Shown here in pieces: positions 2,343-12,356 of a stretch of DNA of 12,356 bases (positions are counted from its first letter, which is position 1; every line of letters starts with the position of its first letter). The DNA comes from an uncultured archaeon. Its GTDB lineage: Archaea > Asgardarchaeota > Thorarchaeia > Thorarchaeales > Thorarchaeaceae. The notes beneath the pieces were generated by a model, which was given only the letters and a program-made list of their open reading frames with translations, was not told where the DNA came from and did no database searches. A program made the position numbers and the translations under genes. The stretch lies in the NCBI GenBank assembly GCA_964458565.1, contig CAYWJO010000069.1, forward strand, positions 1 to 12,356, in the 5' to 3' direction.

Positions 2343-2400
2343 TGACTTCACCACAAGCATGTTGTCAACATACCGAAAAAGGGTTTGGGTCTAGAGAGTA

Positions 2401-2832
2401 TTACTCCACAACGACTTGAGTTTCATGATTTATCGGACATTTCATGCTATTTCCTATGAAACAATACTTGGCTGCAAGTTCTAATGCCCTCTCAATCCTC
2501 TGTACAATCTCTTCTGATTCAACAATAACTCTCGCCATCATATCAATTCCAGTGATTTCAAAACTTCGACCTACCTTCTCAAGTTTACCAATAGCATCAC
2601 AATCAAATGATTTGAATTCTATCCGCATCTTCTTAGTGAATTCTATGAATCCGTTCATGTAGCAGACAGCCGCTGAAGCCACAAAGAGGTCCTCGGGTGT
2701 GTGAAAACTCGCTGATATATCCTCTTTTGGTGACCCGATTCTTATCACTACCTTGTTATCTATTGAAATCTCACCAATCTTGCCCCCTTTCCATACCAGC
2801 TTCACTGGAAAATAGATTGTTTCTTCATTCAT
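2401..2832 (-). CDS. OsmC/Ohr-family protein, tandem paralog
   Basis: TPEDLFVASAAVC and AAKYCFIGNS; shares FTKKMRxEFxSFxC with the neighbour. Likely start is ATG 2832 (MNEET). Confidence 0.85.
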   Translation of the reverse strand: MNEETIYFPVKLVWKGGKIGEISIDNKVVIRIGSPKEDISASFHTPEDLFVASAAVCYMNGFIEFTKKMRIEFKSFDCDAIGKLEKVGRSFEITGIDMMARVIVESEEIVQRIERALELAAKYCFIGNSMKCPINHETQVVVE

Positions 2833-2897
2833 TGATATCCCTAACAAAGTAATTCAATAATAATTGGAAAAACGTTTGGGCAGCTCAATAGACCCAA

Positions 2898-3671
2898 TTA
2901 GGACTTTCTTGATTTGAATACTACAAAGAACGGAATACGTCGTTCCCGATTGAAGAACTCGTTATCAGTAACTGGCAAGGGCTCTTCAAAGCCTGTAAGC
3001 ACAAAACCAGACTTAAGTAAAGCGTCGAAGTATGATGATAGTGTTCTGTGAAAGAAGCTGATGGGTTGGGGAAATTCAGTCCCATCTCGGTTTCTCCAGA
3101 AGCGTTGATACTCCTTTTGTTCAAAATAGTTGTCCACTTTGAAGAATAGACCCTCCGTTCTTTTGGTTTCGGGATTCTTCTCACCCATCACCCATTGTCC
3201 GGGGCCATAGAAATCGAATGCAGGATGTACAATGGAAAAGACAAGATGTCCTTCATCACATAGAATCCGATGGAACTCTCTCAGGGCATCGTTTAAGCAA
3301 GGAATATTTAGCAGAACAAGGTTGCACAACACAAGATCATACTCTGCATTATCAATTCCAAGCAAATCACATATGTTTCCGACCATGTAGTCCACATTGC
3401 TGCTTTCATTCTTTGTCAGTTCAATGCTCTTCTCTATCAGCTTACTAGAGATATCCACTCCTGTTACAATTGCTCCTTTTTTGGAATAATACCGGGAGAG
3501 ATACCCCTCACCACAACCTGCGTCTAAGAGTTTCTTGCCTTTTACATCACCAATTAAACGTTCAACACACGGATTCAAGATTTCTCGGTGGTGCGGTGTA
3601 CCTTGATCTGATATCAAGGCTGCAAAAGCCTGAGCATTTGCTTCCCATTGTTCCTGAATTGATTCGAACAT
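2898..3671 (-). CDS. Class I SAM-dependent methyltransferase
   Basis: Motif I LLDAGCGEG, post-I VTGVDIS, YDLVLCNLVL, and EFHRIL..GHLVFSIVHP. Confidence 0.92.
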   Translation of the reverse strand: MFESIQEQWEANAQAFAALISDQGTPHHREILNPCVERLIGDVKGKKLLDAGCGEGYLSRYYSKKGAIVTGVDISSKLIEKSIELTKNESSNVDYMVGNICDLLGIDNAEYDLVLCNLVLLNIPCLNDALREFHRILCDEGHLVFSIVHPAFDFYGPGQWVMGEKNPETKRTEGLFFKVDNYFEQKEYQRFWRNRDGTEFPQPISFFHRTLSSYFDALLKSGFVLTGFEEPLPVTDNEFFNRERRIPFFVVFKSRKS

Positions 3672-4181: not shown

Positions 4182-4288
4182 TGGTGGACCGGGCGAGATT
4201 TGAACTCGCGACCTTCTGAAGATTCGAGACATTGGGAAATCCCACGTCATTGCGAATCAGACGATCTACCAGTCTGATCTACCGGCCC
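4182..4288 (-). tRNA. tRNA-Ala(CGC) with 30-nt intron at canonical position 37/38 and genome-encoded CCA
   Basis: Minus strand reads GGGCCGG-TA-GATC-AGACTGGTA-GATC-G-TCTGA-TTCGCA[intron]T-TCAGA-AGGTC-GCGAG-TTCAAAT-CTCGC-CCGGTCC-A-CCA. G3:U70 and A73 are Ala identity elements. Mature length is 77 nt. Confidence 0.96.
4221..4250 (-). other. tRNA intron (BHB type), 30 nt
   Basis: Central 4-bp helix TTCG/CGAA, 3-nt bulges CA^A and TC^T, intron stem GAC..GGGA/TCCC..GTC. Confidence 0.92.
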
Positions 4289-10662: not shown

Positions 10663-10803
10663 CTTACACAACTACAGTTAGATATCCAGATCGGATGAAC
10701 ATATCTGCACATCCCATTCTTACTTTAAATGCTCATTTGTTCTTCTTGCAGCCCCTTGTGCTTTAGATGTGCGACCTTCCAAGGTGCATCACAGGAACTC
10801 TAG
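10663..10803 (+). repeat. Upstream copy (copy 1) of the rRNA promoter/5' leader/16S 5' end
   Basis: Colinear blocks shared with 11372-11791: CTTA..CAAC, CGGATGA, CA(T/C)ATCTG(C/T)ACA, a 28-mer with 27/28 identity, TGTGCTT..AGATGTG, ACCTT..AAGGT, and an identical TCACAGGAACTCTAG. Confidence 0.88.
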
Positions 10804-10813
10804 TTGAGCGTAA

Positions 10814-11230
10814 TCAAAAAGTATCATGATAGTGTTCACTATCTAAATAATCAACATAATACTCAAGCTTTTCAATCAATGATGGTTTAGGTTTGACAAG
10901 TTCTCCCTTACTCTCACTCAGCTTCTTTTCATAAATTCCAGAAAGCCTGTATAGATCCCTATCCTCCTTACGAGTTTCTTCAAGGACAAATTCAGCATAC
11001 AACGCATACCCGAGAGCTTCGATCAGCTTCTGATGATACGGTTTGCAGCCAGGATGTCTCGCATAGAGAAAGAATCCGCCCTCATATTCCTTAATCTCAG
11101 TAACCATAAGACGACTCTTATACAACTTCTCTGCTTTCCGCTTAGCCAAATACTCATTTTCAAATATGCCCCTCAGCGAGAGAAGCTTTCCGTCCTTCTC
11201 AATAGATGGGGTGATTTCATCAATTAACAT
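10814..11230 (-). CDS. Hypothetical protein (138 aa, K/E/Y-rich) between the two rRNA leader copies
   Basis: Natural-looking composition and a TTTTTAAAAA TATA-like element ~35-45 nt upstream. No family recognised. Confidence 0.6.
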   Translation of the reverse strand: MLIDEITPSIEKDGKLLSLRGIFENEYLAKRKAEKLYKSRLMVTEIKEYEGGFFLYARHPGCKPYHQKLIEALGYALYAEFVLEETRKEDRDLYRLSGIYEKKLSESKGELVKPKPSLIEKLEYYVDYLDSEHYHDTF

Positions 11231-11371: not shown

Positions 11372-11784
11372 CTTAAACCAACACAATTTAGGCGTATTCC
11401 CACTTCCCGGATGACAACGTTCACATCTGTACACAACACCTTCTCTCAAAAGCTCATTTGTTCTTCTAGCAGCCCCTTGGAAAGCTTTTTATGAGAATGA
11501 CGGCAGAATCTCTTCTGTTCGCACATACTCGGTAACCAGAGAAGATGCCGTCGGCGAATGCCTAGCGATGATGCTCTGGACTTCCAAGTGCGACTATAAG
11601 ATGCGGACTTGAGATAGACCAGTGCCACTGTACTGGAATCCCCTCTTGTCTAAGATACGCTCAACAGGTGTGCAGATATTAAGGGTAAGTAGAAAACCCT
11701 GCCAATCTGTTATCCTTCATACTTCCATTATAGATAATCAGTGTGCTTACAGATGTGATACCTTGCCAAGGTCACGTCACAGGA
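11372..11784 (+). promoter_or_regulatory. rRNA promoter region and 5' external transcribed leader (copy 2)
   Basis: Directly precedes the 16S gene. Long-range helix 11421-11435/11742-11758 encloses the conserved 28-mer 11452-11479 (probable 5' strand of the 16S processing stem) and several hairpins. Confidence 0.75.
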
Positions 11785-12356
11785 ACTCTAGACGTGCGCC
11801 CATATTGAGCGCATGGGAGTGTTGATCCTGCTAGAGGACACTGCTATCGGCGTTGGGGTAAGACATGCGAGTCTAAAGGGTCCGCATCCGGGCTCTTGGC
11901 GAAAGGCTCAGTAACACGTCGTTAACCTCCCGTATGGACTTGGACACCGCCGGGAAACTGGCGTTAATCCAAGATAGATGCGTTGTTCTGGAAATGATTT
12001 CGCGTTGAAATGGGTGTTCTAGGTATGCTGAACATTCCGCCATACGATGGGACGGCGTCGGATCATAGCTGTTGGGGGGGTAAATTCCTCTCAAACTTAT
12101 GACCCGTACCGGCTATGTAAGTAGTTGCCGGGAGAAGAGCACTGAGACACGGGCTCTAGCCCCACGGGGCGCAGCAGTTACGAAACCTCACCAATGCGCT
12201 AACGCGTGAGTGGGCAACGCCGAGTGACAGGGGATAACTCTGTCTGTGGCGATAAGGTAGTATCTTTCGCTAGAAAGGAGAGGGCAAGGCTGGTGCCAGC
12301 CGCCGCGGTAAAACCAGCTCTTCGAGTGGTGTCCATGATTATTGAGCTTAAAGCGT
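11785..12356 (+). rRNA. rrs: 16S rRNA gene, archaeal (Asgard-like), 5' part, runs off the window; interrupted at 11792-11821
   Basis: TTGATCCTG, CATGCGAGTC, GGCTCAGTAACACGT, GGGAAACTG, ACTGAGACACGG, ACGGGGCGCAGCAG, GTGCCAGCCGCCGCGGTAA and TTATTGAGCTTAAAGCG occur in the correct order and spacing. The 5' end is approximate. Confidence 0.98.
11792..11821 (+). other. 30-nt BHB-type intron in 16S rRNA helix 1
   Basis: Central helix CTCT/GGAG, bulges AG^A and TG^T, intron stem CGTGCGC/GCGCATG, exon stem CAGGA/TCCTG. Removal gives ACTCTAG|TTGATCCTGCTAGAG. Confidence 0.87.

Follow-up and report, generated by a model that had tools for sequence, protein, structure and literature searches.

A putative 30-nucleotide bulge-helix-bulge mini-intron in helix 1 of the 16S rRNA gene of an uncultured thorarchaeon

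Introduction

From the 16S rRNA genes of the Thermoproteales and Desulfurococcales, Jay & Inskeep (2015) described 13 intron loci (374, 548, 722, 781, 803, 901, 908, 919, 978, 1093, 1205, 1213 and 1391), including small hairpin introns of less than 50 nucleotides (nt) with bulge-helix-bulge (BHB) motifs (PMC4496867). For Asgard archaea, Kaneta et al. reported that the splicing endonuclease EndA, an (alpha-beta)2 enzyme with an L1 loop, accepts relaxed BHB motifs (PMC5829648). Here we examine the 16S rRNA gene at the end of a 12,356-nt stretch of DNA (hereafter the window) from an uncultured archaeon of the Thorarchaeaceae (GenBank assembly GCA_964458565.1, contig CAYWJO010000069.1); the window is a whole contig (G000:C69) of a metagenome-assembled genome (MAG), and the contig end falls inside this gene. 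An initial annotation, made from the letters of the window, had proposed a BHB mini-intron in helix 1 of the 16S rRNA. We find that positions 11792-11821 are an exact insertion, and with a probability of roughly 0.8 we take them to be such an intron, located at E. coli 12/13 and removed by EndA and RtcB before the 5' end of the rRNA matures.

The site in helix 1 (Rfam model positions 7/8, equivalent to E. coli 12/13) matches none of the 13 loci of the Thermoproteales. The introns of Jay & Inskeep otherwise resemble the present one in being hairpins of less than 50 nt that lack an open reading frame (ORF) and lie where the 16S gene is highly conserved, with BHB borders, presumed removal by EndA and RtcB, and a patchy distribution; what differs here is the phylum (Asgard), the locus, a first exon of only about 7 nt, and a uniform length of 30 nt that is shared with introns of tRNA and mRNA genes. 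Non-canonical tRNA introns of Asgard archaea and Thermoproteales (PMC5829648, PMC11291895, bioRxiv 10.64898/2026.10.13.758758) have in common with it the (alpha-beta)2 EndA system, the HBh' geometry and the size class, and within this genome also the layout 1+9+5+9+4+2 explained below, whereas the host gene here is 16S rRNA and the loop is ATATT instead of xTTTC. The BHB motifs of rRNA processing stems (PMC7714728, PMC12918454) are likewise cut by EndA on an rRNA precursor, near the 16S 5' end, and their products are ligated or circularised, but those motifs free a whole rRNA through pairing of leader and trailer, while at the present locus both strands lie within 51 nt and 30 nt are removed. 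The LAGLIDADG-encoding BHB introns at site 908, which we find in three relatives (L002, L003 and L052), agree with it in splicing route and in favouring sites of the functional core; with lengths of 740-900 nt, they encode a homing endonuclease, whereas the helix-1 intron has neither an ORF nor any recognisable means of mobility.

The kind of element is thus known already; what is new is its locus at 12/13 in helix 1 (with an exon of about 7 nt), its lineage, and its membership in a 30-nt family that extends to tRNA and mRNA genes. The literature, of which our coverage is incomplete, yielded no account of BHB introns at position 12/13 or anywhere in Asgard 16S genes. According to the initial annotation, no archaeal intron is known either at this site or in Asgard 16S genes. 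As to the site, neither the genomes nor the papers found contradict this; as to Asgard 16S genes the genomes do, given that the family has introns at six other 16S sites and LAGLIDADG introns at 908.

Results

The insertion and its borders

The archaeal small-subunit (SSU) rRNA model RF01959 aligns to the window at 11818-12356 (cmscan, 402.6 bits, model positions 1-518); exon 1 is missed, just as the initial annotation had expected of rRNA finders. The alignment flags three broken pairs in helix 1, and the bases directly 5' of UUGAUCCUG read AGU-G, which is not the complement of CUAGAG. That complement, CTCTAG, sits 30 nt farther upstream, at 11786-11791. The body of the gene matches the Rfam model as well as the 16S of relatives does.

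The 16S 5' ends of relatives were compared in 41 genomes first and then in all 86 genomes of the family, of which 52 include the 5' end of a 16S. In each of these 52, similarity to the window begins at 11821, and AACTCTAG stands directly before TTGATCCTGCTAGAGG in the 28 relatives that were read by eye. Relative to them, 11792-11821 is an exact insertion of 30 nt between CTCTAG and TTGATCC, and excising it yields ACTCTAGTTGATCCTGCTAGAGG, as in the 52 relatives. The borders from this comparison are ambiguous by one base (11791-11820 or 11792-11821, as G11791 and G11821 are the same letter), and we chose the second alternative because the BHB rule, by which EndA cuts after the second base of each bulge, selects between the two. 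The initial annotation had used that rule to remove the same 30 nt and restore helix 1, and the borders obtained from intron-less relatives are equal to those it predicted.

It had also proposed a comparison of presence and absence at this site. The insert was found in one genome only; the 52 family genomes just named lack it, and scans of the collection did not find it elsewhere. The closest 16S among the family representatives has 83% identity, so that the genus of the window stands alone in the collection. A scan for CTCTAG followed by TTGATCCTGCTAGAG across a gap of 12-42 nt returned, apart from two chance matches in protein genes, nothing but a tandem duplication of 28 nt in the genome and metagenome copies of SMTZ1-45; a scan with HTTGATCCTGCCGGAGG for archaea with a CCGG helix 1 was uninformative, with bacterial chance matches dominating among the matches listed. 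In Thorarchaeota SMTZ1-45 (L031 682-730, LRSL01000047.1) it is the 16S 5' end itself that is duplicated (AACTCTAGTTGATCCTGCTAGAGGGCAC, twice); this may have arisen in assembly or be a genuine duplication at the same hotspot.

The DNA run X1, assembled independently at k=31, reproduces 11600-12185 with 0 differences, at depth 10 and unbranched, although X1 may be the MAG's own source. Three further DNA runs contain more than half of the sampled words.

Bulge-helix-bulge structure of the junctions

On re-reading the sequence, all letters and coordinates of the initial annotation proved correct (Table 1). Read from its 5' end, the intron consists of A, CGUGCGCCC, the loop AUAUU, GAGCGCAUG, GGAG and UG, with one C.A mismatch at intron positions 9-17. 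The minimum-free-energy (MFE) fold of 11770-11845 contains the pairings CAGGA/UCCUG and CUCU/GGAG, the bulge AGA and the intron hairpin; it adds a pair A11785-U11820, which extends the central helix to 5 base pairs (bp) and enlarges the 3' bulge to 5 nt. Its energy is ordinary for the composition (z = -0.8 against shuffles), so that nothing is proved by the fold on its own. Given the comparative borders, a fraction of 3.9e-5 of 2,000,000 random 30-mers reaches a complete (4/4) central helix together with at least 8 of 9 inner pairs, and cutting after the second base of each bulge gives exactly the borders derived from the relatives. The central helix, the 5' bulge AGA and the inner helix of 7 (+1) bp are canonical; the 3' bulge UGU is closed by a single A-U pair, or is the 5-nt bulge of the MFE fold. 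The geometry in the initial annotation is therefore right for the central helix, the 5' bulge and the inner stem, while the outer helix is weaker than it was described. The arrangement of a processing-stem BHB was not found at this locus, whose two strands, at 11780-11830, enclose no more than 30 nt.

Table 1. Features of the helix-1 locus, the related tRNA intron of the window, and sites of 30-nt inserts in 16S genes of relatives (L015 numbering)
Feature	Position	Strand	Remarks
CAGGA	11780-11784	+	Leader; can pair with UCCUG 11826-11830 (distal outer helix; MFE fold); relatives have GATCA/GACCA
Exon 1, ACTCTAG	11785-11791	+	Rfam SSU model positions 1-7; holds the 5' strand of helix 1; identical to AACTCTAG of relatives
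Central helix, 5' strand CUCU	11786-11789	+	Pairs with GGAG 11816-11819 (3 Watson-Crick pairs and 1 G-U)
5' bulge AGA	11790-11792	+	Unpaired in MFE fold; predicted cut between 11791 and 11792 equals the comparative border
Putative mini-intron, 30 nt	11792-11821	+	1 nt, 9-position stem (8 paired), loop ATATT, stem, GGAG, UG; unique in MAG
Intron hairpin	11793-11815	+	7 bp (11793-99 CGTGCGC with 11809-15 GCGCATG) plus C11801-G11807
Central helix, 3' strand GGAG	11816-11819	+	Pairs with CUCU
3' bulge UGU	11820-11822	+	Predicted cut between 11821 and 11822; exon side closed only by A11785-U11823
Exon 2, 16S body	11822-12356	+	Model positions 8-518 (cmscan, RF01959); ends at contig end
Helix 1, 3' strand GCUAGAG	11830-11836	+	Predicted post-splicing partner of 11786-11791 and U11822; read against the Rfam consensus structure
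tRNA-Ala(CGC) intron, 30 nt	4221-4250	-	Same layout; loop ATTTC; central helix 4/4, inner 7/9; sister element in window
16S insert site	L015 659		30-nt insert in 1 genome; other inserts none
16S insert site	L015 874		30-nt insert in 5 genomes (one 31-nt case counted in); also 31-47-nt versions and 740-900-nt LAGLIDADG-encoding introns
16S insert site	L015 1312		30-nt insert in 1 genome and 31-nt insert in one; other inserts none
16S insert site	L015 1318		30-nt insert in 3 genomes; other inserts none
16S insert site	L015 1359		30-nt insert in 5 genomes; other inserts none
16S insert site	L015 1460		30-nt insert in 7 genomes; other inserts none

A uniform intron family in 16S genes of relatives

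When the full 16S genes of relatives were aligned, inserts of exactly 30 nt were found at six other universally conserved 16S sites, with presence and absence varying between genera (Table 1). Going by conserved primer motifs, we take L015 position 874 to be E. coli 908, 1318 to be about 1345, 1359 about 1386, and 1460 to be 1498. Four such inserts are found together in the 16S gene of L004 (2369-2398, 2843-2872, 2913-2942 and one near the 3' end), and the other carriers are L007, L010, L039, L044-L047, L049 and L050. Inserts at 908, at 1498 and near 1400 cannot plausibly persist in a working ribosome, and we conclude that the family must be spliced.

After register correction these introns have a common layout of 1 nt, a 9-bp stem, a 5-nt loop, the returning stem strand, 4 nt and 2 nt (1+9+5+9+4+2). 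In a stack of 23 thirty-nt introns the 4-nt block at intron positions 25-28 complements exon positions -6 to -3, so the central helices follow the host exon (CTCT/GGAG, ACTG/CAGG, CCTG/CAGG, TCCC/GGGA, CCCT/GGGG and GTCG/CGAT), and as many as four types of Watson-Crick pair occur in a stem column. Of the 13 layout pairs 91.6% are formed, compared with 34-41% if the 3' partners are slid by 1-3 columns, and 85 of 92 central-helix pairs are formed, compared with a permuted mean of 55.8 when the intron 3' halves are shuffled among hosts (0 of 5000 permutations reach the observed value); as orthologous introns are related, these stack figures are not probabilities, and it is the seven independent sites that carry the argument. 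The helix-1 intron follows the layout with a central helix of 4/4, 8 of 9 inner pairs and a G/C closing pair at 10-16, and it has its C.A mismatch at 9-17 in common with three of the site-908 introns.

Site 908 is a classical one, and both large (LAGLIDADG) and small rRNA introns are found there within the same family. Of the large introns, that of L003 spans 2373-3221 (ORF 2458-3246) and that of L052 about 2369-3108 (ORF 2434-3114); the ORFs match LAGLIDADG_3 with 3e-8 and 9e-10. A further insert, of 616 nt, lies at L015 position 940 in L054.

Related elements in tRNA and EF-1alpha genes

According to aragorn, 22 of the 32 tRNA genes in this genome have an intron, most commonly of 30 nt, and several of these introns match the 1+9+5+9+4+2 layout, with loops ATTTC, CTTTC or AATTC. 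For the tRNA-Ala(CGC) gene in the window, the Rfam tRNA match has a 33-nt gap and the aragorn intron call is i(39,30).

The EF-1alpha gene of the same genome (G000:C45 20100-21608, L178) is in pieces. It holds an insert of 31 nt (20259-20289, loop GATTTC) and another of 30 nt (20426-20455, loop ATTTC), both with a 4/4 central helix, and deletion of the two gives a continuous EF-1alpha N-terminus with the frame restored across both; more breaks lie downstream, at about 20577-20697. This restoration of the frame implies that the organism must remove such elements from an essential gene.

Splicing enzymes

Two genes of the EndA family are present in the genome (PF01974, 113 and 73 bits). One (L032 1474-2037, minus strand) encodes a protein of 187 amino acids with the Tyr/His/Lys motif region, which aligns over its whole length with catalytic subunits of crenarchaeal heterotetrameric EndA (3p1z_B, 1.4e-45); the product of the other (L033 1177-1815), of 212 amino acids, is a divergent paralog. 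Judged by sequence, the pair is the (alpha-beta)2 arrangement reported for Asgard archaea. RtcB (L056) is present as well, with 589 bits.

RNA data

Part of the stretch is contained in 19 metatranscriptome runs. The contigs compared with the locus are k=31 Logan contigs of four runs, one of DNA and three of RNA. RNA contigs match 11821/22-12185 with 99.7% identity and start at 11821, 11822 or 11826. The depth of the 16S body is 343, 12 and 50 in the three runs, compared with zero cover over 11792-11820, a gap which in k=31 contigs is not evidence. Two RNA contigs have loose ends before 11821, CAACTCTA and TGGACCAACTCTA, that show the intron-less junction (...AACTCTA before G11821).

The assignment of this junction is limited by the conservation of the region. 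Positions 11822-11851 are nearly identical across the family and the first lineage-specific base is 11852; no 31-mer joins an intron-specific base (up to 11820) to 11852, and the intron-less junction with its TGGACC leader can therefore not be assigned to this organism. The junction may represent spliced or mature RNA that was extended by pre-rRNA k-mers of other species (k=31 chimeras with other Thorarchaeota), or it may come from an intron-less strain.

Genomic context of the locus

The leader at 11472-11690 has 75-80% identity to the 16S leaders of relatives, including homology to the leader of Candidatus Thorarchaeota SMTZ1-45, which together with the match to SMTZ1-45 in the collection scan assigns the family to Thorarchaeota (Asgard), and the genomes of the family mostly have one 16S apiece. 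In the MAG we found no further 16S and no second 16S 5' end, and the remainder of this 16S gene is absent from it; searches of the MAG returned no other copy of the intron, no intron-less junction (sought as a 24-mer allowing up to 5 mismatches) and no copy of the leader word GGACCAACTCTA. A profile search of the genome with RF01959 gave no match, though cmscan detects the partial gene. The orthology of the leader to those of relatives, and the lack of another 16S 5' end in the MAG, point to a native and probably single rRNA locus. An exact 14-mer match, GGAACTCTAGTTGA, on contig C37 falls within an ordinary ORF and was set aside as chance.

Several further features of the leader were noted. 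Its part at 11544-11689 (about 150 nt) is 74-80% identical in about 20 genomes of the family, where it lies some 130-280 nt 5' of the 16S starts; it has no Rfam family at the gathering threshold and may represent a conserved RNA element of the leader. One kb upstream (10725-10810, corresponding to 11446-11479 and 11742-11791) lies a shortened spare copy of leader and exon 1. It comprises a block resembling the rRNA promoter (31/34 identical) and the final 50 nt of leader plus exon 1, lacks the middle part of the leader that is conserved in the family, and reads ...TCACAGGAACTCTAG with TTGA immediately behind, the intron-less form of the junction, before it diverges. A likeness of this copy to the 3' half of the intron (TTGAGCG, then CATGATAGTGTT against CATGGGAGTGTT) is about what chance would give a lenient aligner (roughly estimated at 0.05) and was not used. 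Between the two leader copies there is an ORF on the minus strand (10814-11230) with no Pfam family. Elsewhere in the genome, on contig G000:C1, at least 4 copies of a repeat with ...CCAGCAACTCTAGGTACTGTGCGAG... (near 13278, 245971, 250359 and 255018) are spaced by about 4.5 kb near the contig end; the repeat has the octamer AACTCTAG in common with the 16S head.

Discussion

Evidence for and against splicing

We favour the BHB mini-intron because the borders predicted from structure are those obtained by comparison, because a 30-nt family of the same build occurs in 16S, tRNA and EF-1alpha genes, because EndA and RtcB are present, and because cmscan misses exon 1. A number of observations weigh against this view. 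The insert has a single carrier genome, so that the helix-1 intron shows no covariation of its own. Its exon-side (outer) helix is poor, consisting of one A-U pair, a 2-nt interruption and then 5 bp; because of this weak helix we class the motif as the relaxed HBh' form and not as canonical hBHBh'. The loop ATATT deviates from the family type (A/C/G)YTYC, usually xTTTC, the loops of 22 relatives mostly ending in C; this weakens the claim of recent common descent, not that of the splicing mechanism. Among the RNA contigs, the leader letters (TGGACCAACTCTA, CAACTCTA) differ from the CACAGGAACTCTA of the window, and position 11892 is A in all three runs, whereas the window and the DNA run X1 have G. 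The latter change replaces U.G by a U-A pair in the first hairpin to follow helix 3, and so looks like a difference between strains, not like editing. In the k=31 RNA contigs the spliced junction was not seen joined to the leader of this locus or to lineage-specific bases.

The RNA letters also bear on another possibility, namely that the cell does not draw its ribosomes from the allele or copy with the insert, the expressed 16S coming from an intron-less gene with a different leader (...TGGACCAACTCTAG, A11892) and the copy in the window being strain-specific or decaying. Such a situation would be compatible with an insert derived from an intron. The A at 11892 in three runs would be explained by it, as would the RNA contig that runs upstream as TGGACCAACTCTA into a leader unlike that of the window, and the truncated spare copy 1 kb upstream fits it too. 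We nevertheless consider it unlikely: the leader of the window is orthologous to those of the family, the MAG has no other 16S 5' end or junction, the DNA contig of X1 is unbranched, the 16S body fits Rfam like that of relatives, and most genomes of the family show one 16S; moreover the RNA contig may be a chimera, as no 31-mer links its junction to 11852. That the 30 nt are absent from the organism's DNA, through faulty assembly or binning, is hardly credible. The gene does stand at a contig end in the MAG, and a public Thorarchaeota MAG has a probably artefactual 28-nt duplication at the same spot, but X1 (subject to its possible identity with the MAG's source) and three more DNA runs speak for the insert being genuine, and an artefact would not yield a BHB with the layout of the family.

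Two other explanations were considered. Expansion segments of rRNA are retained in the mature molecule, at the periphery of the subunit, and the insert might in the same way be kept as a small expansion hairpin on helix 1; it does form a stable hairpin, across which CUCUAG could still reach CUAGAG. Its site, though, is within helix 1 and adjoins the central pseudoknot, a region that established ribosome structure places in the subunit's conserved core. Inserts built alike stand at 908, 1498 and near 1400, where retention is not credible, while those of EF-1alpha break the frame and must go, so we regard a retained hairpin as very improbable. Nor do we put more trust in a BHB that serves processing only, where EndA would cut, the exons would stay unjoined, and 16S would begin at U11822. 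EndA is known to mature archaeal pre-rRNA at processing-stem BHB motifs (PMC7714728, PMC10515664), yet these pair leader with trailer around a whole rRNA and not strands 30 nt apart; in addition, no letter of exon 1 (AACTCTAG) has changed, in contrast to the adjoining leader, which has diverged from that of every relative, and the 3' strand of helix 1 is intact. Splicing of a BHB mini-intron therefore remains our preferred explanation.

Proposed course of splicing and its implications

From the insertion, its borders and fold, the family layout and the enzymes we infer cleavage, ligation, the order of events and the position of the mature 5' end, as follows. In the primary transcript, CUCU of the exon would pair with GGAG of the intron to form the 4-bp central helix, with the intron hairpin as the inner helix. 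The two-subunit EndA would then cut between 11791 and 11792 and between 11821 and 11822, in each case after the second base of the unpaired stretch, and RtcB would ligate ...ACUCUAG to UUGAUCCUG..., giving, with the leader of this locus, CACAGGAACUCUAG joined to UUGAUCC. Ligation would permit helix 1 to form (CUCUAG and U with GCUAGAG), followed by the central pseudoknot, and the 30-nt intron would be freed, probably as a circle. With a first exon of no more than about 7 nt, and with leader bases taking part in the distal outer pairing, splicing should precede trimming of the 5' end.

The helix-1 intron would in this scheme be one member of a uniform 30-nt family that is found in tRNA, 16S rRNA and at least one mRNA gene of Thorarchaeota, and that is gained and lost between genera. 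We can only speculate on how it came to its present site. It is possible, if rather doubtful, that it was gained recently from an RNA-level mobile family, by reverse splicing through EndA and RtcB and copying into DNA at any exposed site that offers four complementary bases, and that it is still polymorphic in the salt-marsh population. The intron interrupts CTCTAG/TTGA, a sequence that is intact in the spare copy of the leader, and it could thereby protect the gene against a site-specific nuclease or integrase that targets a 16S head without the intron.

Should the intron be spliced, it is the tRNA-splicing machinery that has to ligate on the first seven bases of mature 16S rRNA, and the formation of helix 1 and of the central pseudoknot, which comes early in the folding of the small subunit and is critical to it, would depend on EndA and RtcB; the map of rRNA introns would also gain a new locus. 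For practical work, rRNA finders shorten such genes, and 'universal' 5'-end primers of the TTGATCCTG or 8F-21F type would meet a disrupted site. For the lineage as a whole, the helix-1 intron and those of the relatives indicate that one uniform type of 30-nt intron pervades the rRNA, tRNA and protein genes of the Thorarchaeota, and this bears on the spread of introns in the archaeal relatives of eukaryotes.

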